A stretch of 64,000 bases of DNA from Terriglobales bacterium. Its GTDB lineage: Bacteria > Acidobacteriota > Terriglobia > Terriglobales > Acidobacteriaceae. This document shows positions 1,811-31,052 of this stretch, piece after piece. The number at the start of each line of letters is the position of its first letter. The first letter of the stretch is position 1. Made by a program: the position numbers and the translations under genes. The DNA lies in NCBI GenBank assembly GCA_049585795.1, contig JBAVAQ010000023.1, forward strand, positions 45,915-109,914. The letters are read 5' to 3'. Under the pieces are notes generated by a model. The model searched no databases. It was given only the letters and a program-made list of their open reading frames with translations, and was not told the DNA's origin.

Positions 1811-2971
1811 TTAGATAGCGGATGTCGCAATCGGCTGAATGCCACGACTCTGCACTTTCGTGTTCCAGTGGAAAAACCCGCCACACTGTTCTTTGACGGC
1901 ACAGTCGTGACAGACCTCCGCGTAGGCGTTTTTCCAATCGGAGATGGATTGCTTGGAATACTTCCAGAGCGATCGCTTCAAGAGACACAACTGAAGATTG
2001 TAGATGCGGGCGTCTATGCCGAATCTCGCAAGAACGTCCACGCTGCTTTCCAGTTGCTCTTGATAATCCACCGGATCGATCCACAGCTCGCTCATGTTCC
2101 GGGGAGCGTAGCCGATGTGTTCCATTCCCATGAAAGCCACATGATCGACAAAAGTGAGATTCCTGCAAATGTACTCCGCCAAGTGGGTTAGGCGCGGGAT
2201 TGTCAATGCGTGCAGTACGACACGGATTTCGATCTCGACGCCACGTCTCGCGAGTTGATGCAAGCCCAAGATGGTTTGGTCGAAGGCGTCCCGCGCCTGA
2301 ACGACGTAATCGTGCAGCGCCGCATCATCGGCATAGAGAGGAATCCCTACGCTCAGATTCGGATGGCTAATTGCGGCGAACCGAGAAGCGAAATCAGCCC
2401 AGGCGAAACGGCGACCGTTCGTAAGCATGTGGACATAGGTCTCCGGCATAGCGTCCCGCAGCTTCGCGACGATGGTCAGGAGGCGCTCTTCCAAGAGGGT
2501 TGGTTCTCCGCCGGTTATGCAAAGGTATTCAGGCGCCGGGGCCATCAGGTCAATGAGTTTAAGGTTGCGCTCCGTGAGCGCGGTGATATCGTCCCTGTCG
2601 ATTGGAGGCTGTGAACACATCAAGCAATTACTGTTGCACCGCTCCGTGGCAAACAGCGTGTTGTGGCGGGATTCGGGACGGTACAGGGTGCGGATAAATC
2701 CGTTCGCCGGTTCGAGGGCGACAACGTGACCCGAGATGAGATGGTCGATATCGCGAACTGAATGCAGGAGCGGTGCGGAGAATGGTCGGCCGTTGACTTC
2801 CTGTTTGACGATGACGGCCGCATATCCGCGAACGTCGTCCGCACGTCCGTCGAGCGACGGCAACACCAGCGCGGCGTCCTTTCTTTCGGAGGCGGGAATC
2901 GGCTCCGTCGTGATGCGCGCAACAATCGGTTTCCGGAAACCGCGTGCGCTGCCTGCCGTGTGCAGTCTCAT
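1811..2971 (-). CDS. hxsC: His-Xaa-Ser system radical SAM maturase HxsC
   Basis: CNSNCLMC (CxxxCxxC) radical-SAM motif and C-terminal CHDCAVKEQC. The start is set at the internal ATG at 2971, which forms an ATGA overlap with the hxsB stop; the track ORF extends to 3223. Last gene of the hxsADBC order. Confidence 0.8.
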   Translation of the reverse strand: MRLHTAGSARGFRKPIVARITTEPIPASERKDAALVLPSLDGRADDVRGYAAVIVKQEVNGRPFSAPLLHSVRDIDHLISGHVVALEPANGFIRTLYRPESRHNTLFATERCNSNCLMCSQPPIDRDDITALTERNLKLIDLMAPAPEYLCITGGEPTLLEERLLTIVAKLRDAMPETYVHMLTNGRRFAWADFASRFAAISHPNLSVGIPLYADDAALHDYVVQARDAFDQTILGLHQLARRGVEIEIRVVLHALTIPRLTHLAEYICRNLTFVDHVAFMGMEHIGYAPRNMSELWIDPVDYQEQLESSVDVLARFGIDARIYNLQLCLLKRSLWKYSKQSISDWKNAYAEVCHDCAVKEQCGGFFHWNTKVQSRGIQPIATSAI

Positions 2972-4467
2972 TGGGGAAGCCCAGCTCGAAGTTCGGCAAG
3001 ATTTCGGTCGGTCACCCATGCCCACAGGATGTCCTGAACGTCGCGATCTCCACCATGCAAGAGTGACATGAGGTGTTCGATGACGCGCATATTCCGCTTG
3101 CAAAAACCGCTCGTTGCTCGGTGGCCGAACGCGTCGCGCTGCGTGGCGTGATGATAGACCGGATCGGCTCCGCAGAACGGCTGGAAGGCGCAGTCTGAGC
3201 ACCCCGGCAATGACTGGTTGCACGCCGCCTGGAGGAGACTCACGAATGCGGGGTCCGTGAATATCTGGTCCCGCGAGTGCGTAAGCACGTTGCCCAGCCT
3301 GAAGGTAAAATCTCCCATTTCCGCGAGCATCCGGGATTCGTCCGTCGCGTACACGTCTCCGTCGTAGTTGTAGACAAGCACGTTCAACCCCGCACCGGAC
3401 GGGGACTGGAGATCGACATAGCCGGTTCCGTCGGGCGTAAGGATTTTCTGGAGTAGGATCTTCGTGTAAATCTCGACGAGGTTGTAGCCCCTCTTATTCA
3501 ATTCAAGAATGTGACGAAGACCCGTCCGGTAAAATTCCAGGAACGCATCCATCTGGTAACCGGTCCGGTGACTGCTTTTGATCGCAAATCCGTATGGGCT
3601 GATCGGCCTCAGGAAAATCGTGTGGAATGACTGTCGCACGTATTCATCGATGATCTCGTTAGGATACTGAAGCGAGAGCTGCGTGGTCGTCATCAGAGCA
3701 GCGACCTGGTCAGCACCTAACGCGCGACGAGCCCGCTTTATCCCGTCGATGGCGGCTCGATAACTGTCACCTTCCGGTCGCGGGCGATTTGCATTGTGGA
3801 TGAACTCCGGCCCATCAAGCGATGTCGAAAGCTTGATCCGCTCAATTCTGCAGTAGTCAAGGATGTCGCCTGTCAAGAACGCCAAATTTGAAGTGATGAC
3901 GATATCTAGCTCCTTATTGAGCCTGGCAGCACCCGGCTTCGCGATTGAAACGATGTACTTGATCGTGTCGAATGCCAACAGCGGCTCTCCTCCCTGTAGT
4001 TCGAGCGTGAGGTGCGGGGAGGGAGATTGCAGCATCATATCGACCGCTGCGGCGGCCACATCCTGCGGCATATCGAATTCGCCTTTGTTGACCGTCTGGC
4101 GCGACACTTGGCAGTAGTGGCAGGAATGATCGCAACGCAGCGTCACGACGAAAATGTGCAACTTGGTCGATCCGTGTATGAACTCGAATTTGGTTCGGTA
4201 CTTTGACGCCAGAACATCGAGAAGAGGCGAGGAGTAATCATCATAGAGGAAATGTTTCGCCTTGAGGGTGGGGTATATGTCGTCGGCGGGTCCCAACGCT
4301 CGTCTCACGATTTTCTCGGCGGTGCCGCGAGGCGCGAGCAGGAATTCCCCGCATTCGTTGACGAGGATTTCAGTCTGCTTGTTGAGACGATGAAACCGGA
4401 ACGGCAGAAGGCGATAGCTGCCGTTGGAAGACGTGAAATCCGTTATGGGTGAGAACGACCGCGCCAC
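2968..4467 (-). CDS. hxsB: His-Xaa-Ser system radical SAM maturase HxsB (SPASM-type C-terminus)
   Basis: 499 aa with CDHSCHYC radical-SAM motif, GGEPLL, and C-terminal Cys cluster CNQSLPGCSDCAFQPFCG. Sits between hxsD and hxsC. Confidence 0.8.
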   Translation of the reverse strand: MARSFSPITDFTSSNGSYRLLPFRFHRLNKQTEILVNECGEFLLAPRGTAEKIVRRALGPADDIYPTLKAKHFLYDDYSSPLLDVLASKYRTKFEFIHGSTKLHIFVVTLRCDHSCHYCQVSRQTVNKGEFDMPQDVAAAAVDMMLQSPSPHLTLELQGGEPLLAFDTIKYIVSIAKPGAARLNKELDIVITSNLAFLTGDILDYCRIERIKLSTSLDGPEFIHNANRPRPEGDSYRAAIDGIKRARRALGADQVAALMTTTQLSLQYPNEIIDEYVRQSFHTIFLRPISPYGFAIKSSHRTGYQMDAFLEFYRTGLRHILELNKRGYNLVEIYTKILLQKILTPDGTGYVDLQSPSGAGLNVLVYNYDGDVYATDESRMLAEMGDFTFRLGNVLTHSRDQIFTDPAFVSLLQAACNQSLPGCSDCAFQPFCGADPVYHHATQRDAFGHRATSGFCKRNMRVIEHLMSLLHGGDRDVQDILWAWVTDRNLAELRAGLPQ

Positions 4468-4481
4468 TGCTCCTGTCTCCC

Positions 4482-4925
4482 CTATTCACCGGACTTAGTA
4501 GAAATACTGATCAAATCCCCAGGTTTTGCGCCGCTCCGCTCAACCGGGTCCTCGAAAGTTCCCGGCGGTGGGTCTTCCAATACCCCGGATTCGGCGAACG
4601 CCTTTGCAATAATCAGTTCGCGTACCCCGGCAGTTTCGGCTTGAATCTCCACGCGAAGTTGCGAGTCAAGCAGGGCGTCGTAAAGGTCGGGCAGCCATTC
4701 GTCGATCTTTCTGACGTTCGGTTGGTCAAGCGTCGGGGAAGACACGCGCAGCCCAACAGTCACTGCCAGTGACTCGTCCGTCTCGCTAAGATGAAAATAC
4801 AGGTCCTTGCCAAACCAATAGCACGCTCGGAGAACGGCGGGTTTTGAATAGACCTTCTTGTCGATCGAAATGGTCGCGGCGGTGTGCTGATCGTTAAACT
4901 CGACGGGGCCGAATCGTTCACTCAT
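4482..4925 (-). CDS. hxsD: His-Xaa-Ser system protein HxsD
   Basis: 147 aa. Contains LLDSQLRVE, matching the LLNDYxLRE family signature. ATGA start/stop overlap with hxsA at 4922-4925. Confidence 0.7.
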   Translation of the reverse strand: MSERFGPVEFNDQHTAATISIDKKVYSKPAVLRACYWFGKDLYFHLSETDESLAVTVGLRVSSPTLDQPNVRKIDEWLPDLYDALLDSQLRVEIQAETAGVRELIIAKAFAESGVLEDPPPGTFEDPVERSGAKPGDLISISTKSGE

Positions 4926-5260
4926 ATCGCCCGAGAAGCGTGCGAAGAATGGGATGAATGCGAGGAATGCGAAGCGTGGGAAGCATGGGATGCGTGCGAT
5001 GCGTGGGAAGCGTGCGAAGAATGGGACGAGTGCTGCGCGATCATTTTCAGCCCCTTCATCGTCTTTCTGAGCACAAGTTTCGATGGCAACCGATGATCAC
5101 TACCGGGCTGGACCACCCGAGAGGTGCTTTCCGAAGGGACTGGAAGCGTTGGGGAAGCCACTAACGGAGAAGAATTGCTGAACGCAACGGTGCCGCCCAG
5201 CAGGAGCGCCAGCTTCGTCGAGATTCGTCGGAAAAACGCTCTTAACGTTTGCTCATCCAT
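4922..5260 (-). CDS. hxsA: His-Xaa-Ser repeat precursor protein HxsA
   Basis: 112 aa. N-terminal RR + hydrophobic leader (FFRRISTKLALLLGGTVAF). The C-terminus is 11 uninterrupted H-x-S triplets (HSS HSS HASx5 HSSx3 HAS) followed by RAI-stop. Confidence 0.85.
   Translation of the reverse strand: MDEQTLRAFFRRISTKLALLLGGTVAFSNSSPLVASPTLPVPSESTSRVVQPGSDHRLPSKLVLRKTMKGLKMIAQHSSHSSHASHASHASHASHASHSSHSSHSSHASRAI
4934..5032 (-). repeat. 99-bp tandem repeat with 9-bp (3-codon) periodicity, encoding the His-Xaa-Ser core
   Basis: Units on the + strand such as gcgtgggaa/gcatgggat/gcgtgcgat repeat head to tail. A mirror ORF on the + strand reads CEEWDECEECEAWEAW. Confidence 0.85.
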
Positions 5261-5881: not shown

Positions 5882-7351
5882 CTAGACCAACCGAAGTCTT
5901 CCGAGAAGTTTGACTAGGGCCAGCGTGTCCTGCCCGCAGTAATCCAGCAGCGCCTTCGTGATCCTTTCCCGCTGAGTCTGATCCAAGCCGCCCCGTATGA
6001 GCGACTCCCAGGCCAGCCCTGCGTCCGTGCCGTCCGCGACCTGCATGCCCGCGTAGGTCATATCGGGCACCAGCGCAGGCAGGACGTACTTCAGCGAGAA
6101 CGATCCGGCAAAGCGTGGATGGTACACGTGGTCGCGGATCACGGGCAGCAAGTCCCACAGCCGCCGCTGGATTCTCTTGATGCGCCCCGCGAACTCGGGC
6201 AGCCAAGCCGCAAGCTCCGAAAATCGCTGCGACTCGAAGGAGCTGTAGACCAAGATGCTTCCGCTCTCGCCGAGGACGGAGCACAGCGAAGCGATGAACT
6301 CATGTCGGGGATCGCTTTTGTCGTTGGCTAAGAATTCATGGTGTTCGGGTTCCGCTCCAGGTTCCCTCAGCACGTGAATCGACCACTGAAAAGGAATCTG
6401 GTCGTAGGGCCGCATGCCTGGAAAGCGCGGAATCGCGGGGTTTACCGTCTCGAAATCCATAAAGAGAAGCGGGTATTTCAGCCCGCTCAACTCCCTCTTT
6501 AGTTCTGCGCTGAACCAAGGCTCTCCGGTCTGCACGCTCGCGCACGCACGCCGCTGGCGCTCGTTCAGCGGGAAGTCGTCCGGGATGTCGCGGATGGACT
6601 CGACGCCCATCTCCTCTAATTCTTCCATCGCGCTCGCCTGGATTCTGGGCAGGTAGCCGACGTGGTCGTCAGGGCGCGGGGCATTGCAGCGGTCGAAGAA
6701 CTCGCAGGTGACGGGCGCGGTGCAATGGCGTCCCGTAGGTAGGTCCGGCGCTTTCAGCATGTTGAGAACGGTGAACTCCGCACGCAGCTGGAACGTGAGC
6801 TTGGGCTGCAATTTCTTAACTCGCCTGGTCAGGTTTCGGATGCGGAAGAACTGTCGCACGTCGATGGGGCCGCCCTGAAAGACGTAGTTCCGGTTGACGT
6901 GCATCAGGCACGACGCAGCCAAGTCCAGCCCGGACCGGGAGACGACGCGGGCCTGGATCGCCACGTCGTCGAGGTGGTGCTCCTTCAGGTCGGTCGTCGA
7001 CTTGACCTCCACCAGCCGCCATCGCCCGTCCCTGCGGCGCTGCAACATGTCCGTCCGCACGAGCACGCCGCCGTTCTCGAACGTGCCCTCGAAGATCGCG
7101 GGGACCTCAGGGTTCGCCACCAACTCGCGGGTTATGCGGATCGCCTCGTCCAGGCCAGCGGAACCGCCAACCTCCACGCCGCCGGGGAACATCTGGCGGG
7201 CGAGCAGTCCGACCTCTCGTCCCTGCTCAAAGATGGCTTCGCTAGCCGCGTCTGGTTCTCCCGCCAGTTCCGGCTCGTGTACCTGAAGGTAGAGGCGCTT
7301 GAGGCACTGCACGCCCGCGACGAATTTGGATTTGCTGATTCTGATGTTCAC
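5882..7351 (-). CDS. DUF2779 protein: Cas4/RecB-like PD-(D/E)xK nuclease domain + DnaQ-like domain
   Basis: 489 aa. N-terminal SKSKFVAGVQCLKRLYL with a distal CTAPVTCEFFDRC (4-Cys Fe-S pattern), then FMDFETVNPAIPRF...PYDQIPFQWSIH typical of DUF2779. The GTG start overlaps the upstream stop (GTGA). Confidence 0.7.
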   Translation of the reverse strand: MNIRISKSKFVAGVQCLKRLYLQVHEPELAGEPDAASEAIFEQGREVGLLARQMFPGGVEVGGSAGLDEAIRITRELVANPEVPAIFEGTFENGGVLVRTDMLQRRRDGRWRLVEVKSTTDLKEHHLDDVAIQARVVSRSGLDLAASCLMHVNRNYVFQGGPIDVRQFFRIRNLTRRVKKLQPKLTFQLRAEFTVLNMLKAPDLPTGRHCTAPVTCEFFDRCNAPRPDDHVGYLPRIQASAMEELEEMGVESIRDIPDDFPLNERQRRACASVQTGEPWFSAELKRELSGLKYPLLFMDFETVNPAIPRFPGMRPYDQIPFQWSIHVLREPGAEPEHHEFLANDKSDPRHEFIASLCSVLGESGSILVYSSFESQRFSELAAWLPEFAGRIKRIQRRLWDLLPVIRDHVYHPRFAGSFSLKYVLPALVPDMTYAGMQVADGTDAGLAWESLIRGGLDQTQRERITKALLDYCGQDTLALVKLLGRLRLV

Positions 7352-7716
7352 CGCAGCGCCTCATCTTCCATCTGTTTCACTATGCTCCTGAACCCTCGCA
7401 TTGCGGAAATCAGCTCGGACCGCTCTGCGTCCTCCCGCCAGTCAGAGGGCACGACAAATTTGTCGTAGTCGTACTCGACGCCCTTGTTCCTGTGGTCTTC
7501 GGCTTCGAAGAGATCGAATGTCACAGCGACATTCCGGCTTTTGACATCGCCGCTTTTGTCGAGATCGAGCGACGTGAGCACAAACACATTGAAATAGTCC
7601 ATCATGCCTCCGCCAAAGAAAGGTAGGGTGTCGTGCCTGCGGCCACAAGCGTGCGTACCTGTCCGCTCGCCTCTTGAACGAATCTCGTCTATGTCACCTT
7701 GTCTCACCCGAGACAA
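7348..7716 (-). CDS. Small acidic hypothetical protein
   Basis: The track ORF is 122 aa with a TTG start. The conserved-looking part probably starts at the ATGATG at 7605 (85 aa, MMDYFNVFVLTSLDLDK...). Its ends overlap both neighbouring genes. Confidence 0.4.
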   Translation of the reverse strand: MSRVRQGDIDEIRSRGERTGTHACGRRHDTLPFFGGGMMDYFNVFVLTSLDLDKSGDVKSRNVAVTFDLFEAEDHRNKGVEYDYDKFVVPSDWREDAERSELISAMRGFRSIVKQMEDEALR

Positions 7717-8183
7717 GGTCGCTTTCGCGTCGGGCTCTTTGTAAAGCTACTCCACGCGCATAGCAGAAGCAGCGGCGAGAACACCGCGAACGGGGCGACC
7801 GCGAAGTAGACCGCCGGGCTCTTGCTCACGGCGCGAAACGCGAGGTTGAACGCGACCTCTGCGACGATCGTGCCGAGGAAGCCGACCAGCGCCCACCCGC
7901 AGCCCGCGATCTGGACGCGCATGCCGCACGAGGCGGCGGTGCGGTTGCCTGGGGTCGTTGTCCGCAGGACGCGGCGGAGGCTCATGAAGAACGCGGTCCA
8001 GACGGCGGAGACGAAGGGGCCAGCCGCCATGCAGAAGAAAGCCAAAAAGCCAGGGTTGCTGCCAGCGCCGCCCGCGATAGCGAAGAGCGAGACGCTTACG
8101 AGGATCGCCGGGGCGAGAAGCAGGAAGCCTAGGATCGCCAGCTGCGTCAGGATGAACCGTCCGACCGCCCTCAGGAATTCCAT
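7704..8183 (-). CDS. Four-helix integral membrane protein
   Basis: Start set at the ATG at 8183 (MEFLRAVGRFILTQ), preceded by AGGAGGG 5 nt upstream. Four hydrophobic segments. Confidence 0.55.
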   Translation of the reverse strand: MEFLRAVGRFILTQLAILGFLLLAPAILVSVSLFAIAGGAGSNPGFLAFFCMAAGPFVSAVWTAFFMSLRRVLRTTTPGNRTAASCGMRVQIAGCGWALVGFLGTIVAEVAFNLAFRAVSKSPAVYFAVAPFAVFSPLLLLCAWSSFTKSPTRKRPCLG

Positions 8184-8218
8184 TTGTGCCCTCCTGTTTT
8201 GTCTAATCCCGGCGAAGG

Positions 8219-9226
8219 CTAAGCGCCGGCCGTCTGTCGGACGCACCCGTCCTGCGGCTTCGGCGGCATCTTCCGCGCCGTCGCGTTGTCACAGAGCGCC
8301 TGCAACCGCCCTCTGTACTTCGCGGCCAGGCCGGACGCCGCGTCGATCGCCCTCGATGCCTTGCTGAGTTCCTTCTCGACCTCGTCCAGATCGACGAACG
8401 TGCGCCGGACTTCCTCGGCCAGCGCGGAATTCTTCTGGAGGAAGTCGGGGCCCTCGGTTCTCATCCGCTCGAAGACGGGCCTGAGCACTTCGAGGTCCCG
8501 CGGCAGCCAGCGGCGCGTCGTCCGGAGCACCCACACCCCGTCCTCCTGGCCCCAGCGCCGCTCGCGGTCAAGCTGGCGGAGCTGGCTTTCTTCCCTCGCG
8601 ACGATGATGCCGACCGGGATGCGCCGTTCCTTCGCGTCGCGGATCAGCTTCTTGATGTCGCCTTCGCTGACTACCGCCTTGTCCTTGTTGTCCACCAGCA
8701 TGTTCGGGTCAAGCGGTGCCCCGCTAGCATCGCGGAACGCCAACAGGTAGTCGCCATTCTTGGGGAGCTTCTCGGTAACGTGCATTCCTGGCCACGTCCG
8801 GGCTTCCTCTTCGAAGCTGAGTTCTTCCAGCTTTCCACGCCGGGGGGCTTTGGACATTTCCCCTTCAAGTTCCTGATTGCGCTCACGGAGGTTGGCAACC
8901 TCCCTCAGCGCATCTTCGACTCGGCGATTGGTTTCATCCCTTTCGGATTGTGCGGTGCGCAGTTCGTCCTTGTGTCGCTCTCTGATTTCCAAGGTTCGTT
9001 TCGCCAGTTCCGTCTCGAATCGGGCCCACGCGCTCTGGTGCTCATGATCGTGCTTGTTCTGGAGCAGCCGGAACGCCTCCTCCGCGCTGAGCTGCGCGAC
9101 CCGCGCGAAGTCCTTTGCCCCGAGCCGATCCAGAATCTCGGCGCGTGTGAGTGCGCCCGCGCCCGAACACAGCGGACACTCGATGGTTTCCGTCGGCTGA
9201 GGACAGCTGCCTGCTTTATCTGGCAA
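8219..9226 (-). CDS. Zn-ribbon + coiled-coil + PD-(D/E)xK-like protein (DUF2130-like architecture)
   Basis: 335 aa. N-terminal CPLCSGAG, a long charged heptad-like region (residues ~60-130), and C-terminal GDYLLAFRD...LVDNKDK...IKKLIRDAKERRIPVGIIV resembling the DUF2130 nuclease-like core. TTG start with AGGAGG 5 nt upstream. Confidence 0.55.
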   Translation of the reverse strand: MPDKAGSCPQPTETIECPLCSGAGALTRAEILDRLGAKDFARVAQLSAEEAFRLLQNKHDHEHQSAWARFETELAKRTLEIRERHKDELRTAQSERDETNRRVEDALREVANLRERNQELEGEMSKAPRRGKLEELSFEEEARTWPGMHVTEKLPKNGDYLLAFRDASGAPLDPNMLVDNKDKAVVSEGDIKKLIRDAKERRIPVGIIVAREESQLRQLDRERRWGQEDGVWVLRTTRRWLPRDLEVLRPVFERMRTEGPDFLQKNSALAEEVRRTFVDLDEVEKELSKASRAIDAASGLAAKYRGRLQALCDNATARKMPPKPQDGCVRQTAGA

Positions 9227-9521
9227 TTCGTCCTCCTGTGATCAGCTCCAGTTTGGCTAGAGCCGTGGCTTCGCTCGGCTGCGCTTGCGGTCGTCCATCT
9301 GGCGCGGGAACCGGTATCGGAACGCGGTTGCCGATGATCAATGCCACGGCTACCCAGCGGTCGGAGACGTTCAGCCCGGTCCTCCGCTCGGCGAGCCGGA
9401 TCAGGTTCTCGTCGGGAATGCCGTGGAACTGTGGCAGCGACGACAGGTACCTCACCGCCTCGCCCTTGATCCGCAGCGGCACCTGCTTCTGCGTGTGAAC
9501 GGTTGTTTGTCTCACCCTCAC
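9216..9521 (-). CDS. Hypothetical protein, first gene of the 5-gene operon
   Basis: 101-aa ORF with strong GC3 codon bias. GTG start, no clear SD. Its 3' end overlaps the next gene by 11 nt. Confidence 0.4.
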   Translation of the reverse strand: MRVRQTTVHTQKQVPLRIKGEAVRYLSSLPQFHGIPDENLIRLAERRTGLNVSDRWVAVALIIGNRVPIPVPAPDGRPQAQPSEATALAKLELITGGRIAR

Positions 9522-9621
9522 ACTGTACGGAGCAGGCGGGAAAATCGTCCGGAGAAGCGGGAGCTGTTACCGAAGATTTCCCTCCGAGCCCGGACGATTT
9601 TTCCAGTCGCTCCGTACACTG
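9521..9621. promoter_or_regulatory. 101-bp imperfect palindrome in a divergent intergenic region
   Basis: Arms at 9521-9552 and 9590-9621 match 26 of 32 nt as an inverted repeat (cactgtacggagc...gggaaaatcgtccgg / ccggacgatttttcc...gctccgtacactg), with a 37-nt spacer. Confidence 0.6.
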
Positions 9622-9636
9622 CAAGCGGAGAGGGAA

Positions 9637-9990
9637 GTGACGATCCGGGAACTCATCGACGAGCAGAGAAGGCGCTTGGGCTCCCGCTCCCCCGTGGAAC
9701 GGTTCGCCGCTGCAACGCTGATCCCCGCCGTGCTGGCGGAGCGACTCGTCGGATTGGCGGATCGCCAGGTAGGGCAGCTGCTGCTCGACGAGGTGTGGCC
9801 GGGGCTGAGCCCTCTCGCTCCTGAGTCGACGATCTGCCTCCACGCCGCGGATCGGCTCCGCGGCCCGATGAAGCAAAATCCGACGTGCCCGAAGTGCGGC
9901 TCGGAGATGATCCGCCACGTCGGGATCGACGAGCCCGATTTCCTGGAATGCAGCCTCCTCCGCTGCGGACTTCGGATACAAGAAACGTAG
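9637..9990 (+). CDS. Hypothetical protein with C-terminal zinc-ribbon
   Basis: 117 aa with CPKCG...x19...CSLLRC. Lies 25 nt upstream of the serine recombinase. Confidence 0.45.
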   Translation: MTIRELIDEQRRRLGSRSPVERFAAATLIPAVLAERLVGLADRQVGQLLLDEVWPGLSPLAPESTICLHAADRLRGPMKQNPTCPKCGSEMIRHVGIDEPDFLECSLLRCGLRIQET

Positions 9991-10015
9991 CCAACACACA
10001 AGGAGCATCGAGCGA

Positions 10016-10654
10016 ATGAAGAGAGCAGCCCTGTACGTGCGCGTCAGCACCGTGGACCAACACCCGGAAACCCAACTGCACGATCTCCGGCAGTTCGCAG
10101 CTCAGCGCGGGCTCCAGATCGTCGGGGAATACACGGATCACGGGTTCAGCGGGATGCGGGCGCGGCGGCCCGAGCTCGACAGGATGATGGACGACGCTCG
10201 CCGTCATAAGTTTGACGTGCTGATGGTCTGGGCGTGCGACAGGCTCGCGAGGAGCACCAGGCACCTGCTCCAGACGCTCGACGAGCTTTCTGGGTTCGGC
10301 GTCCAGTTCCTGAGCCAGCGCGAGGCGATCGACACGGAGGGCCCGCTCGGCAGGGCGATCATCGTCATCGTGTCGGCCATGGCGGAGCTTGAGAGGTGCA
10401 TCATCATCGAGCGCGTGCGGGCCGGGATGCGCCGGGCGAAGCTGGAGGGCCGCCAGATCGGCAGGTCGCGGCTGGACGTGAACCGCGAGCAAGTCGTCCT
10501 CGACCGCCGCTCCGGGATGTCGCTGACGCAGGTCGCCAAGCGCCACAACATTTCGAGGGCCTCAGTATGCCGCCTGATGAAAGAAGCGAATGTTGATAGC
10601 TCTCCTGCGGTCCTGCCTGACGGGGAAGACCTCGGGCGCGAGGTTGAGCTTTAG
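10016..10654 (+). CDS. Serine recombinase (resolvase/invertase family) with C-terminal HTH
   Basis: N-terminal AALYVRVSTVDQ (catalytic Ser), then VWACDRLARS, ELERCIIIERVRAGM, and HTH SLTQVAKRHNISRASVCRL. Confidence 0.9.
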   Translation: MKRAALYVRVSTVDQHPETQLHDLRQFAAQRGLQIVGEYTDHGFSGMRARRPELDRMMDDARRHKFDVLMVWACDRLARSTRHLLQTLDELSGFGVQFLSQREAIDTEGPLGRAIIVIVSAMAELERCIIIERVRAGMRRAKLEGRQIGRSRLDVNREQVVLDRRSGMSLTQVAKRHNISRASVCRLMKEANVDSSPAVLPDGEDLGREVEL

Positions 10655-10712: not shown

Positions 10713-10988
10713 ATGACGCTGAGAGAGAAAATCGAGAAGCGCAACCCGGACGCGTTGTTCCTCAGCCAGTACGGGGACGCGCTCGTCGGAATAACCCTGG
10801 GGGACCATCCCGTCGCCGTATACGACTTCGACCTGATGGTCGCACGCTTCAGGAAGCTCGACTGGTCCACCGAAAAGACGCGCGATGAGGCGGAGAAGTG
10901 CATCGTCAGGAATTTCCGGGCGGTATACCCGGAGCCCAACTTCCCCGTGATACTTCGCAGAAATGTCCCTGAGCACAAGGATGAATGA
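10713..10988 (+). CDS. Phage-like small hypothetical protein
   Basis: 91 aa. The DALVGIT...PVAVYDFDLMV motif resembles common phage small proteins. 4-nt overlap with the next ORF. Confidence 0.45.
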   Translation: MTLREKIEKRNPDALFLSQYGDALVGITLGDHPVAVYDFDLMVARFRKLDWSTEKTRDEAEKCIVRNFRAVYPEPNFPVILRRNVPEHKDE

Positions 10989-11236
10989 GCCAAGACATCG
11001 AGATAGGGGAAGCCCAGAAAACTCGGCGAAGCGCACGCACCGACCAGGTAGGCAAGGTGTTCATCGTCGTCGGCCAGCGCATTCGCAGGTGCCTCGTCTG
11101 CGAAGAACTCTTCACGCGGCGAGCCGCCTCAGAGCACGCGGCGGTTCCGTGCGTGCCCGGAACCAAGGTGCAACCTGGGAGGAAATCGCATGCAGATCGG
11201 CGAGCCATTGCGAACCTTCGTCGTGGAGCCGCTTGA
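10985..11236 (+). CDS. Small hypothetical protein with VFIVVG..IRRCLVCE motif
   Basis: 83 aa. A paralogous motif occurs at 12004-12273. Confidence 0.35.
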   Translation: MSQDIEIGEAQKTRRSARTDQVGKVFIVVGQRIRRCLVCEELFTRRAASEHAAVPCVPGTKVQPGRKSHADRRAIANLRRGAA

Positions 11237-11327
11237 GTCTCCGGTGGAGCAGCCGACACGCGAGCCCGAGCCTGAGCCGACTCGGTCGCCGGAACCGGAG
11301 CCTGAGCAGGTTCCGGCCGCGCCGTGA
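11190..11327 (+). CDS. 45-aa Pro/Glu-rich micro-ORF (not in the ORF track)
   Basis: ATG at 11190 preceded by GGGAGG 7 nt upstream. Translates to MQIGEPLRTFVVEPLESPVEQPTREPEPEPTRSPEPEPEQVPAAP. Its stop overlaps the GTG of the next gene (GTGA at 11324-11327). Confidence 0.4.
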   Translation: MQIGEPLRTFVVEPLESPVEQPTREPEPEPTRSPEPEPEQVPAAP

Positions 11328-12031
11328 AAATCCCTGATCTCATTTCGCCGATCGTCGGCCACCGCGTCTGGCGGTGGGATGCCGCTGGGCTGAGCTCGCT
11401 CAACGGCAAGCGATGGTGTCCGCGTCAGCCGTTGGCGGCGAAATGCGGTGCCGGAAACGCGCATGACGCCGACGAACAGCCGCACTTGGAATGCACTTGC
11501 GGCGTCTACGCGGCGAAGAGCCGTGAGCACCTGCGGCAGTTAGGCTACGAGGGGCGCGGCATCCGCGGCGAGGTCTATCTCTGGGGAACCGTGGTGGAGC
11601 ACAGACTCGGCTGGCGTGCCCAGTTCGCATACCCCAAGAGCCTCGTCCTGCCGCCCCACTTGATCCCGTCCGACACAAAGGAAATGGAGGCCCGCCTGGG
11701 AGCCCTCGCCGCCTATGACATCGACATCTTTATGCTTGGCGGCGGACGGAAGATTCCCCTCTGCCGGAAGGGATCGGGCTTCGACGTGGCGGGGCTGGAC
11801 TATCTGATCGAGAAGCGCACGGAATATTACGTCCGCCGCCAGCGGGACAGAACCCTTATGAAGGGCGACCGGGTGGCGGTCCTCGGCCGCGGGATCGCCG
11901 TGGTCGAGCACGCCGACGAGAGAGAGGTTGAGGCTCTTCTGGGGAACAAAACCTTATTAAGGATGCGGCGCAACGACATTGCCTGGAACCGTCAGAACAT
12001 GCGGTGGGAGGCAAAGGACTTAGCTCTCTAG
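11324..12031 (+). CDS. Hypothetical protein (phage-associated type)
   Basis: 235 aa with the motif GHRVWRW...LECTCGVYAAK...GEVYLWGTVVEH. Confidence 0.5.
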   Translation: MKIPDLISPIVGHRVWRWDAAGLSSLNGKRWCPRQPLAAKCGAGNAHDADEQPHLECTCGVYAAKSREHLRQLGYEGRGIRGEVYLWGTVVEHRLGWRAQFAYPKSLVLPPHLIPSDTKEMEARLGALAAYDIDIFMLGGGRKIPLCRKGSGFDVAGLDYLIEKRTEYYVRRQRDRTLMKGDRVAVLGRGIAVVEHADEREVEALLGNKTLLRMRRNDIAWNRQNMRWEAKDLAL

Positions 12032-12273
12032 AGCGCCAAGCGACATCCAGACCAAAGCAGCCGTGGCGCAGCCACCAGCCCCCCGACAAGGTCGACGAGG
12101 TCTTCGTTGTCATCGGTCACGATGTGCGCAGTTGTCTTATCTGCGAACACGAGCTGTCTGCACGCCGGGGATCAACTCGAAAACTGCGAGCAAACGATGC
12201 GAGTCGGGCGACGAGTCGCCAGTTGTCGTCATTTCACTTTTTCGATGTCGCCAGGCTTCCAGCTCTTGTCTAA
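12004..12273 (+). CDS. Small hypothetical protein, paralog of 10985-11236
   Basis: 89 aa. EVFVVIGHDVRSCLICE compares with KVFIVVGQRIRRCLVCE. The 3' end overlaps the convergent DUF1254 gene. Confidence 0.25.
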   Translation: MGGKGLSSLERQATSRPKQPWRSHQPPDKVDEVFVVIGHDVRSCLICEHELSARRGSTRKLRANDASRATSRQLSSFHFFDVARLPALV

Positions 12274-13761
12274 AGCGGCTTCGGTCGGGCCATAGAGTCT
12301 GAGGATGGCGAAGAACCCCCGATCTGGAGCAGTGGCGAGCCAGTTGCCTTCTTTACCCGCAGGTGCTTTTGGACCGAAGTAAAGGTCCGTGCTGCCGTCC
12401 GCGTTCTGCACCGGCTTGTCCCTCGAACCGAGCGAGGGGAAAGGTTGGCCGTTGGCGAGACCTGACGCGTTCGCAGCGTCATAGAGCGTAACCGACCAGA
12501 AGATGGCAGCCGGGACGTTGGGCGGCAGGTGCAGGCGATAGTTGCTGTCACCCACGAACGGCTTGCCCTCGCTATCGAAAAAGGCCATCCAGTAATTGGC
12601 TCCCTTGCCAGGTATTCGTGAGGCCATGCCAATGCTTATCGCGTAGTAGCCGGTGAAATAGTTGATCCGGGAGTCAGTTGTCAGAACCCCCGCGGCGTTC
12701 AACCAGGGCCAGTCATTGACAGAAGGTGTTGGGTTCGCCGGCGTCTGGTTGGCCAGCGGATTGGACCATTGACGGTCGGGGAAAATCAAATATGACACGC
12801 CACCGACAACATTTTGGAAAAGCAGCACGCGGCTCATTTCGTACCCGGTCTTCGCAGCCTGATCGAGGACCTTCCGGGTGCCCGCATCAGGTGTGAACGG
12901 CTGTCCCTTGACGATGCCGATTGCCGCCAAGTCGCCGAGCCGGTCGGGGCCGGCAAGGTTGGCGCCCTCCTTGTCCAGGAGCAGCTTGAGCTGAATAAAC
13001 GCGCTGCCGTCGCTGATCGGCAGCATGTTGACCGGGACCCCCGAAGCATCGGGAAATTTCATCGGCTTGGCCTCAGCCTCACCGTTCAGCGGATAGATTT
13101 TTGTCCGTTCAAGGTGTTCGACGGCGGGTGCCAGATTCTTCGGGTCCTCGTAGAAGCCACGCAGGAAAACGAAGACGCTGTTGGTTGCTGAACGGTAAAT
13201 GAAATAACCTTCCGGCACCGTGCCCTTATAGCCGGGCGGCAATAGCAGAAATTTGCCGCCCTTGCCACCATCTGGTCCAGCCAGACCGATGTCACCAAAG
13301 AACTTGCCACCATCGACCGGGATGGGACGCTGCCAATAGTCGTCAAAGATGCCCTGCAGCCCGGGCGGCGCTTCCATCACCAGCGGACCGTCCTTCCCAA
13401 GATCCACGTAGCTCATGGCGTAAAGCACGTCAGAGTTCGGCGTCGTGACTAGGGTCTTGGCGTCTAGGCGTCTTTTCCAAATTGGCAGGACGTTGTAACC
13501 GGCACCGAAGGTTTTCTCGGACCCGACCTGCATGCCGAGCATGTTGATTAACGGCATCGCCCAGAGGTAGGTCTGCGTCGCCCGTTGGAAGAGCAGTTCG
13601 TCGCGCAGTGTCTGCGCTGCCTCCTGCGTGGGCCGTCCGTCCGCGAACGGGAGATTGGCGAGTTTGTCGAAGTCAGCTTCCTGAGCGAACGCAGCGGACA
13701 CCAGCCACACTGCTGCCAAAGTCCAAACGACCACAAGTCTGTACACCATATTTGATTTCAT
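12229..13761 (-). CDS. Secreted DUF1254/DUF1214 domain protein
   Basis: 510 aa with a signal peptide. Motifs WAMPLINM, VTTPNSDVLY, FWSVTLYD and WLATAPDRGFFAILRLYGP are typical of this family. Confidence 0.75.
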   Translation of the reverse strand: MKSNMVYRLVVVWTLAAVWLVSAAFAQEADFDKLANLPFADGRPTQEAAQTLRDELLFQRATQTYLWAMPLINMLGMQVGSEKTFGAGYNVLPIWKRRLDAKTLVTTPNSDVLYAMSYVDLGKDGPLVMEAPPGLQGIFDDYWQRPIPVDGGKFFGDIGLAGPDGGKGGKFLLLPPGYKGTVPEGYFIYRSATNSVFVFLRGFYEDPKNLAPAVEHLERTKIYPLNGEAEAKPMKFPDASGVPVNMLPISDGSAFIQLKLLLDKEGANLAGPDRLGDLAAIGIVKGQPFTPDAGTRKVLDQAAKTGYEMSRVLLFQNVVGGVSYLIFPDRQWSNPLANQTPANPTPSVNDWPWLNAAGVLTTDSRINYFTGYYAISIGMASRIPGKGANYWMAFFDSEGKPFVGDSNYRLHLPPNVPAAIFWSVTLYDAANASGLANGQPFPSLGSRDKPVQNADGSTDLYFGPKAPAGKEGNWLATAPDRGFFAILRLYGPTEAALDKSWKPGDIEKVK

Positions 13762-15274: not shown

Positions 15275-15739
15275 GCTTTATCCTTTCTCACGTTGAATCT
15301 TGATTTTTTTTGCAGCGTGGGCGGGCGTTCAGTGCAAGGCTCACACGGTGGGAACCACGAACGATTTTCTTAGCCAGACGCACTAGACGCATTTGTGCCA
15401 CGGCGTAGGCTATGCCCACCGCGCTGCCCAGAAAACTGGCAGAACTGCCAGTCCGCACAGGAATCGTCTAAGCTTCTGGATTGCGCCCTAGGTCACGGCA
15501 AGGTGGAAGTCAGCACTCAACCCCAGTGGTCCAAAAGGGTTCCTGCGCGGCGGCCGCAAGTGAGTGAATCCAATGCCCGAGAAAACCGCGTCTTTGCCAG
15601 TCAGCCCGGTATACGTTTTGAGACGGAACAACGCCCGCTGCGTGAGCGTGTCTATGACTGGGGCGGCTTTCGCAGCGTCATCACCCTAATGTGACCTGAG
15701 CCGGTCGCTCAGAACTTGAGAGACGGAAGCCCGATCCTT

Positions 15740-27740: not shown

Positions 27741-27827
27741 TGGTGCCGGGAGGGGGAGTCGAACCCCCAAGGGCCGAAGCCCGGCGGATTTTGAGTCCGC
27801 TGCGTCTGCCAGTTCCGCCATCCCGGC
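27741..27827 (-). tRNA. tRNA-Leu (anticodon CAA), CCA encoded
   Basis: Reverse complement gccgggatggcggaactggcaga...ggactCAAaatcc...long variable arm...ggttcgactccccctcccggcacca. Cloverleaf with a 7-bp acceptor stem. Confidence 0.9.
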
Positions 27828-30965: not shown

Positions 30966-31052
30966 GCCATCGTGGCGGAATTGGCAGACGCGCATGGTTC
31001 AGGTCCATGTACCCGCAAGGGTGTGGGGGTTCGAGTCCCTTCGATGGCACCA
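30966..31052 (+). tRNA. tRNA-Leu (anticodon CAG), CCA encoded
   Basis: gccatcg...catggttCAGgtccatg...long variable arm...gggggttcgagtcccttcgatggcacca. Confidence 0.9.

Follow-up and report, generated by a model that had tools for sequence, protein, structure and literature searches.

The locus described here is a minus-strand gene cassette that encodes two predicted nucleases and lies beside a divergently oriented small serine recombinase in contig JBAVAQ010000023.1 of a Terriglobales bacterium. We analysed a 64,000-nucleotide (nt) stretch of this contig (positions 45,915 to 109,914; henceforth the window, in whose numbering coordinates are given) and mapped its proteins onto about 100 non-redundant related loci gathered from genomes and metagenomes, a set in which the same contig is coded L030. 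All the related loci come from Terriglobia metagenome-assembled genomes (MAGs) or from metagenomes.

A preliminary description of the sequence had reported five overlapping or near-abutting genes at this place. All five open reading frames (ORFs) were found on the minus strand where it had placed them (5882–7351, 7348–7716, 7704–8246, 8219–9226 and 9216–9521), and in each of them the codon-position G+C is coding-like (GC3 0.66–0.82 versus GC2 0.40–0.56), a gene-like pattern that the overlapping alternative ORFs do not have. Most junctions are also as first given: an 11-nt overlap between genes 1 and 2 (9216/9226), a 35-nt gap between genes 2 and 3 (8183/8219, with the gene 3 ATG at 8183, the same start as in the L030 gene call) and a GTGA overlap between genes 4 and 5 (7348/7351), which recurs as a 4-nt overlap in several other called loci. 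The overlap proposed at 7704/7716, on the other hand, would require a TTG start at 7716 that neither the L030 gene call nor the homologue lengths support. The call for gene 4 covers 6392–6646 of L030 (window 7348–7602, 84 aa), and among the best-scoring 120 of 355 homologues, on which the figures for this gene are based, lengths are 84–99 aa and nearly all 84–86 aa. The start of gene 4 is therefore placed at about 7602, with a gap of about 100 nt to gene 3.

The unit itself had to be redrawn as well. Homologues of gene 1 were found upstream of gene 2 in just 8 of 91 loci; gene 1 is missing from most loci, and in many its place is taken by an unrelated ORF of about 72 aa, so that the core consists of four genes (genes 2–5) and not five. 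Outside this genome, homologues of genes 2, 3 and 5, and of gene 4 too, are found together at dozens of independent loci in Terriglobia, a point that the preliminary description had left to be checked. The cassette is real, conserved and so far unnamed: no model of PADLOC-DB v2.0.0 matches its composition, genes 1, 3, 4 and 5, the recombinase and o235 (the last gene of the block described below) had no match in that database, and no paper describing the gene combination was found in the searchable literature. The features of the locus are collected in Table 1.

Table 1. Features of the cassette, the recombinase arm and their surroundings in the window.
Feature	Position	Strand	Description
Second radical-SAM gene of the His-Xaa-Ser (Hxs) system	1811–3223	−	
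HxsB radical-SAM maturase	2968–4467	−	TIGR03978, 592 bits
HxsD	4482–4925	−	Hxs system member
HxsA-like precursor	4922–5260	−	C-terminal HSSHSSHASHAS... repeat
Gene 5	5882–7351	−	489 aa; Cas4/RecB-like PD-(D/E)xK N-terminal part with 4 Cys, DEDDy 3'-5' exonuclease-like C-terminal part
Gene 4	7348–7602	−	acidic protein, 84 aa, isoelectric point (pI) 4.6; stop overlaps gene 5 start (GTGA)
Gene 3	7704–8183	−	basic membrane protein, 159 aa, about 4 transmembrane (TM) segments
Gene 2	8219–9226	−	335 aa; N-terminal CxxC and helical head, coiled coil, PD-(D/E)xK core, long C-terminal helix
Gene 1	9216–9521	−	basic ORF, 88–101 aa; sporadic accessory outside the conserved core
Dyad site	9521–9621		about 100 bp between divergent operons; two 32-nt arms, asymmetric conserved centre GTTACCGAAGATTTCC
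o117	9637–9990	+	117 aa, C-terminal Zn-ribbon (CPKC...C....C); first gene of recombinase operon
Small serine recombinase	10016–10654	+	212 aa; resolvase/invertase catalytic domain and C-terminal helix-turn-helix (HTH)
o91	10713–10988	+	91 aa, variable accessory; 93–96% identical in L009 and L037, replaced in L025; no family match
o83	10985–11236	+	83 aa, basic, Cys-containing; no family match
o45	11190–11327	+	45 aa, Pro/Glu-rich; called in L030 and L025
o235	11324–12031	+	235 aa; last gene of the block common to other loci
o83 remnant paralogue	12063–12200	+	just outside o235; overlaps 3' end of opposite-strand DUF1254 gene
~120-nt element	15505–15629	+	recurs on recombinase side of island

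Two predicted nucleases and two smaller proteins

Gene 5 is clearly a full-length member of the DUF2779 family and a predicted nuclease. It matches PF11074 over profile positions 2–126 of 126 (142.9 bits against a cut-off of 23.3, E 8e-42), and its catalytic residues are kept in both parts of the protein, in agreement with the initial assignment as a Cas4/RecB-like four-Cys nuclease joined to an exonuclease domain. Members of this family are fusions of a Cas4-like and an exonuclease domain and are functionally uncharacterised (PMC13621843, PMC3985635); the Cas4/RecB-like four-Cys core is given in PMC13621843, and the C-terminal part has been assigned to an exonuclease clade (PMC3985635). In an alignment of 12 sequences from 4 phyla, comprising Acidobacterial homologues and plasmid DUF2779 proteins of Campylobacterota, Betaproteobacteria and Cyanobacteria, the Cas4-like residues E88, D101, E115 and K117 are invariant, and so are C210, C216 and C222 of the four-Cys cluster (C16 nearly so) and the DEDDy residues D299, E301, D400, Y471 and D475. 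The same two-domain build, with four Cys, D..ExK and DEDDy motifs, characterises the TM0106-like 'solo Cas4' plus DEDD exonuclease proteins of PF11074. What differs is the company they keep: IetA-like ATPases, WYL proteins, Mokosh-like helicases and PDC-S26 nucleases elsewhere, but an acidic protein (gene 4), a membrane protein and a DUF2130-like nuclease here.

For gene 2, the preliminary description had proposed a DUF2130-like protein made of a Zn-ribbon, a coiled coil and a PD-(D/E)xK-like domain. The coiled coil and the nuclease signature were recovered, and the N-terminal motif proved to be a two-Cys CxxC. The likeness to DUF2130, catalogued as a PD-(D/E)xK family of unknown function (PMC3424549), stands as remote homology, but gene 2 falls below the Pfam threshold and is not a member of PF09903. 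When the gene 2 family profile (A2) was compared by hhalign with the true DUF2130 protein of A. butzleri, the two aligned with 94.8% probability (E 4.9e-8, 122 columns), with the GD and (D/E)xK motifs in register. The window protein had no match to PF09903 at E up to 1, and its close homologues P0047, P0117 and P0023 scored 23.6, 21.6 and 21.1 bits, none reaching the cut-off of 26.7. Gene 2 likewise had no Pfam, NCBIfam or PHROG match, and its PADLOC matches (LmuB and DndD, E 4e-4 to 2e-3) were at the level of the coiled coil only.

Among 17 gene 2 sequences, with identities down to 29%, residues C17, C20, G22, G24, E135, D159, D179 and K181 are invariant, a signature that combines the two-Cys CxxC with a complete PD-(D/E)xK motif. 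In the AlphaFold2 (AF2) model, with a predicted local distance difference test score (pLDDT) of 78, residues 148–237 form an alpha/beta core, and a long coiled coil and a long C-terminal helix are also seen; the block-mean pLDDT is 84–95 over the core region 145–315. Foldseek matches were modest (E 5e-3 to 0.15) and comprised Mrr-type and restriction endonucleases, the Rpb5 N-domain, McrC and BamHI. With the conserved residues mapping to this restriction-endonuclease-like core, gene 2 is a predicted nuclease of the PD-(D/E)xK superfamily. A sequence search of the PDB with genes 2 and 5 gave nothing, or coiled-coil noise only. Compared with DUF2130/PF09903 proteins, which have an RmuC-like architecture, gene 2 has the same succession of coiled coil and PD-(D/E)xK core; it differs in its N-terminal CxxC and helical head, in its sub-threshold Pfam score and in belonging to a narrow Acidobacterial family. 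True DUF2130 members are also found in defence-like neighbourhoods, next to type I restriction-modification, reverse-transcriptase-like, AAA/metallophosphoesterase and NB-ARC genes.

The gene 2 family is abundant but narrow, since more than 2,000 homologues at 69–94% identity form only 354 clusters at 50% identity, and every genome carrying the gene in a GTDB scan is a Terriglobia or Acidobacteriota MAG. A phage or plasmid origin was considered and rejected: gene 2 was unmatched in 72,556 plasmids and had a single match in 2.9 million IMG/VR contigs, without evident capsid or tail genes among the ORFs listed for that one locus.

The two remaining core genes are small. In keeping with the first description, gene 3 encodes a protein with four hydrophobic, predicted TM segments, seen by hydropathy at residues 4–42, 46–67, 90–116 and 122–147. 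In many loci its position is occupied by a hydrophobic ORF of 146–245 aa that is only about 25% identical. Gene 4, which does encode a small acidic protein, immediately precedes DUF2779 at all loci with gene calls, and its best homologues are 76–100% identical. Its AF2 model is poor (pLDDT 64), and with such a model a fold search gave no meaningful result.

An accessory block with variable flanks

Linkage of the two nuclease genes was counted at the loci with enough sequence (n = 45). In 28 of them DUF2779 follows gene 2, at most 4 kb downstream. All 28 are among the 37 loci with a gene 2 identity of 60% or more, and none is among the 8 with a lower one. The modules are also found apart. DUF2779 is missing beside the recombinase and gene 2 in all 8 loci with gene 2 below 60% identity and in several closer ones; in an abundant population gene 2 is the missing part, and a gene 3-type membrane protein, gene 4 and DUF2779 adjoin a tyrosine integrase; and the cassette is also found without the recombinase. 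Given that the modules separate, genes 2–5 may not be one obligate system.

Where the genes travel together, the conserved segment is longer than the cassette. Comparison with loci L025–27 and L032, whose genomic setting differs from that of the window, gave 84–88% nucleotide identity over the stretches 5919–7611, 7995–9194, 9507–10581 and 11031–12041. The common block therefore spans DUF2779 to o235 and includes o117, the recombinase, o83 and o45; the cassette genes co-occur as the preliminary description had proposed, but the unit also takes in the recombinase arm and runs to about 12.04 kb. The match to L025 breaks off at 12041, and homology to other copies ends about 40 nt or less from the terminal stop codons. 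Past both of these stops (those of DUF2779 and o235) the flanks are unrelated in every locus compared. The G+C of the block is 0.62–0.64, against 0.54–0.58 in the flanks, and several single MAGs hold 2–3 divergent copies. The nearest relative genome, L127, is 97% identical in protein and 96% in nucleotide sequence over the adjacent DUF1254 genes; these are all that it shares with the window (homology limits 12225 and 15206), with no wider synteny, and both the block and the Hxs genes are absent from it. On these sequence comparisons, the block is accessory, horizontally moving DNA. The accessory setting next to a serine recombinase had been correctly recognised at the outset. The 'phage-like genes' also mentioned then are unsupported; beyond the recombinase only o235 was compared with PHROGs, and it had no match.

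Both nucleases belong to superfamilies that contain repair enzymes (RecB/AddB, Cas4-like, RmuC-like), and on that account the genes could be taken for a Terriglobia operon with a housekeeping function in DNA repair or recombination. We give this explanation hardly any credence, in view of the patchy distribution of the block, its repeated and divergent copies within single genomes, the unrelated flanks at every locus, a G+C content above that of the surroundings and its absence at the corresponding place in the closest relative.

Defence-island context and a possible role

Where long contigs exist, the cassette often lies in defence islands. The sets of neighbours recorded within 10 kb are GmrSD, Mrr and an SNF2/NOV_C helicase; DUF499; GmrSD_N, AAA_21, an HD-associated dGTPase-like protein, UvrD-PDDEXK, a DNA methylase and Vsr; Thoeris-like SIR2/STALD ThsA and ThsB-TIR, TIR and Bub/ThiF; a restriction-modification system resembling type III, together with an SNF2 helicase; and a large DEAD/DEAH-type helicase of about 1,700 aa. 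In L007, genes 3–5 are replaced by one 701-aa protein (10941–13046 of that locus) in which an N-terminal membrane segment is joined to a QueC-like PP-loop domain and a nuclease domain of the DpnII/MboI type. Defence systems typically exchange their effectors in this way. A few kb past the 701-aa fusion lies a gene for a PLD-like protein.

DUF2779 itself has no PADLOC model. On plasmids of other phyla it is found within or beside Mokosh-like, IetA-like, PDC-M27 and PDC-S26 operons and WYL regulators. The gene orders at three such plasmid loci are MkoA, MkoB, a 61-aa ORF, DUF2779 and an MkoC-like helicase in A. faecis pAFAEC (L120); an IetA-like ATPase, DUF2779, WYL and PDC-M27A/B in a Rhodoferax plasmid (L117); and PDC-S26, DUF2779 and WYL in an A. 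butzleri plasmid (L116), which also has a true DUF2130 gene oriented divergently to a small serine recombinase 4 kb away.

We tentatively interpret genes 2–5 as a Terriglobia accessory cassette for nuclease defence against phage or plasmid DNA, carried on a recombinase-bearing island, and regard this as the best of the explanations considered and quite possible given the sequences. From the domain content we infer the following course of events. The gene 2 protein would dimerise through its coiled coil, and its two-Cys CxxC may complete a zinc site within the dimer; the helical head would bind DNA and the Mrr/DUF2130-like PD-(D/E)xK core would make the first cut. DUF2779 would be the processive effector that degrades the exposed ends, with a Cas4-like 5'-3' and a DEDDy 3'-5' activity. 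The 84-aa acidic protein of gene 4 would be translationally coupled to DUF2779 and might be its partner or its inhibitor, while the 4-TM protein of gene 3 would tether or gate the complex at the membrane, the entry point of foreign DNA. The divergent recombinase operon (Zn-ribbon protein, recombinase and small ORFs) would share a dyad control site with the cassette and is probably responsible for the spread and rearrangement of the block. In Kiwa (KwaAB) and Zorya (ZorAB-ZorCD), a small membrane component is encoded together with cytoplasmic DNA-targeting effectors in defence islands. The cassette is like them in composition only: it has no PADLOC similarity to the models of these systems, and its membrane protein is without a recognisable motor or sensor domain.

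Several points weigh against a defence role. None of the five proteins has a specific PADLOC match. Gene 3 is barely conserved in sequence (about 25%), and the predicted structure of gene 4 is too poor for a role to be assigned to it. The modules separate, with the recombinase and gene 2 occurring alone and the membrane protein, gene 4 and DUF2779 likewise. In the window itself, the neighbours of the block are not defence genes but the HxsABCD peptide-maturation genes and two DUF1254/DUF1214 genes, and the local context is therefore uninformative. Finally, a defence-island setting is guilt by association, as mobile elements gather there too.

The close bond between gene 4 and DUF2779 also lends itself to another explanation, that of an addiction or stabilisation module in which DUF2779 (or gene 2) is a toxic nuclease and gene 4 the antidote that keeps the island, any effect on phages being of the abortive-infection type. 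The GTGA overlap of the gene 4 stop with the gene 5 start, both here and in several other called loci, would fit, as would the acidity of gene 4 (pI 4.6), its unusual conservation among the best-scoring homologues and the persistence of the gene 3, gene 4 and DUF2779 sub-cassette alone. However, DUF2779 proteins of other phyla have no gene 4 homologue (the 61-aa upstream ORF of A. faecis is dissimilar), and gene 4 is unlike known antitoxins in sequence or in structure, the latter judged from a low-confidence model. The order of a small gene followed by a 489-aa partner is compatible with a toxin-antitoxin pair, not diagnostic of one. We consider such a module distinctly unlikely.

Read as a defence system, the cassette is one more among many predicted ones, and its specific value is that it links two uncharacterised nuclease families. 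DUF2779 and DUF2130 are widespread and without tested function, and here both (the latter through its remote relative, gene 2) are found in a compact conserved setting of four genes, with intact catalytic residues and thousands of metagenomic copies. The evidence across phyla for DUF2779 in defence islands is consistent, and the cassette adds to it. If it protects against phages or plasmids, it would be a new system from the Acidobacteriota, an abundant soil phylum with a poorly explored immune repertoire, and would provide a role for the 'solo Cas4-exonuclease' fusion. The tight, orientation-free link with the recombinase could moreover show how defence cargo moves among islands.

The recombinase arm and the mobility of the block

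Of all the neighbours of gene 2, the recombinase is the most constant; it was found at most 3 kb upstream in 49 of 57 loci (30 divergent, as in the window, and 19 collinear), and is also present in all the distant relatives that are without DUF2779. Its catalytic domain matches PF00239 at residues 4–146 (E 8e-44), followed by HTH_23/HTH_7 at 156–189, and its best PHROG match is PHROG 125, 'DNA invertase' (E 7e-49). A general association of DUF2130 with recombinases was entertained and dropped: the two were adjacent in only 1 of 6 plasmid neighbourhoods inspected, and the link is therefore specific to the Acidobacterial family.

Between the recombinase operon and the cassette lies the dyad site, an inverted repeat (I1) with arms that are 81% complementary. 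The same architecture is found in about 25 loci of the divergent type: the arms differ among loci and co-vary symmetrically within each, and the centre GTTACCGAAGATTTCC is conserved. The site probably holds two divergent promoters and an operator, and is a candidate binding site for the recombinase; a scan for consensus promoters and terminators was uninformative.

These features raise the question of whether the nucleases are the machinery of the element itself, i.e. whether the block, or just the recombinase and gene 2 pair, is a new serine-recombinase mobile element in which gene 2, perhaps with DUF2779, acts on the DNA of the element or of its target and so aids movement, homing or retention. 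Besides the constancy of the recombinase and the conserved dyad site, this would account for the different flanks at every locus and for the multiple copies per genome, among them three units of GspE-like, recombinase and gene 2 genes, 90–94% identical, on one contig. In MAG CAVTNF, which has two copies, the recombinase and gene 2 segment is 92% identical and the downstream genes only 66%, a pattern that fits either gene conversion or independent movement of the recombinase and gene 2 pair. But gene conversion between paralogous islands accounts for this pattern just as well, the cassette is also found without the recombinase, and the version without gene 2 adjoins a tyrosine integrase. Flank comparisons revealed neither element ends nor terminal repeats, attachment (att) sites or a target duplication, and a further copy of the dyad site was found at neither end of the block. 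An empty site, sought through the neighbouring DUF1254 protein, was not found either, L127 not being syntenic. We hold this explanation to be rather unlikely.

The hallmarks of known elements that were looked for at the ends can be dealt with briefly. Terminal repeats or att sites were rejected since the flanks past DUF2779 and o235 are unrelated among loci. A third arm-like motif (CCGGACGAT...) 28 nt past the DUF2779 stop was considered as an element end and is likely due to chance; in 12 loci the similarity between the dyad site and the flank downstream of DUF2779 was no better than that of random windows. The three-unit contig belongs to MAG CAVRNQ (L012, L014 and L016). Each copy is about 4 kb long and encodes a GspE/PilB-type secretion ATPase (586 aa), a serine recombinase and a gene 2 homologue of about 430 aa, with Cys-rich small ORFs and a metallophosphoesterase as 3' neighbours.

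Comparison with known elements gives a mixed picture. In Tn3 the res site sits between tnpA and tnpR. The window recombinase resembles the Tn3 resolvase and Hin/Gin in being small, with a C-terminal HTH, and in standing divergently across a conserved symmetric site. Unlike Tn3, however, the block has no DDE transposase (no such domain was found in any of its ORFs) and no terminal inverted repeats, and unlike Hin/Gin it has no inverted sites flanking a segment. IS607 also pairs a serine recombinase with a nuclease gene and is present in several copies per genome, but the window recombinase scores just 45.6 bits on the IS607 model NF033518 (cut-off 110) and has its HTH at the C-terminus, where that of IS607 is N-terminal. 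The nuclease here is of the PD-(D/E)xK and not the RuvC-like type, and there is no TnpB-like ORF in the block. A more specific proposal would be that the recombinase and gene 2, across the dyad site, represent an unrecognised class of mobile module in Acidobacteria, the nuclease assisting movement, homing or retention and defence cargo being carried between islands. We regard this as a long shot. If true, the module would be a functional parallel to TnpA-TnpB of IS607, with gene 3, gene 4 and DUF2779, or alternative effectors, as its cargo.

The two orientations of o117, recombinase and o83 relative to gene 2, together with the best PHROG match, could also point to a Hin/Gin-type invertase that flips its own segment and thereby turns the cassette on and off (phase variation). 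Collinear loci do seem to drive the cassette by read-through from one promoter-like half site. Yet no inverted-repeat pair brackets the region 9.5–12.2 kb in the window, and collinear loci keep the centre and one arm of the dyad upstream of o117, with no other arm before gene 2, a half-site pattern that simple inversion does not produce. Moreover, contigs with the same gene 2 protein are all in a single orientation. With no flanking repeats and only half sites in collinear loci, a Hin-like switch was rejected as very improbable, and the two orientations look like evolutionary variants. Island-borne nuclease defence remains the interpretation to which we tentatively adhere.

The other genes of the recombinase arm are mostly without recognisable relatives. 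The first, o117, is coding-like (GC3 0.81), has weak Zn-ribbon Pfam matches only and adjoins the recombinase in many loci. Downstream of the recombinase, o83 is a common companion, with tblastn matches beside the recombinase in most loci, and o45 is found at 67–88% identity (tblastn) in about 10. None of the accessory ORFs scanned with Pfam (o83, o91, the ~72-aa ORF and others) had a match. At the far end, o235 is 86–91% identical in L025, L034 and L039 and 48–70% identical in others; it had no Pfam, PHROG or PADLOC match. The remnant just beyond it forms a direct repeat with o83 (D1, 65 nt, 11040–11104 versus 12083–12147, 71%; 42% by tblastn of o83), which points to a partial copy of the element, either older or in tandem.

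Further out on the recombinase side, copies of the ~120-nt element were found in constant orientation and at 79–90% identity in L112, L025–27/L032, L039, L010, L005 and L108, with cargo genes between it and the recombinase arm that differ among loci. No reading frame is common to all copies. An RNA was considered and rejected, there being no Rfam match, no supported fold (the folding energy is weak) and no covariation. The element may be an outer boundary marker of a larger island, or a gene remnant; were it a boundary, the island here would measure about 9.7 kb and include the DUF1254 pair. The window has only two tRNAs, tRNA-Leu CAA and CAG (27741–27827 and 30966–31052), neither of them near the block, which accordingly is not a tRNA-targeted island here. 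On the cassette side, the block is accompanied by a complete Hxs system, encoded on the minus strand at 1811–5260.

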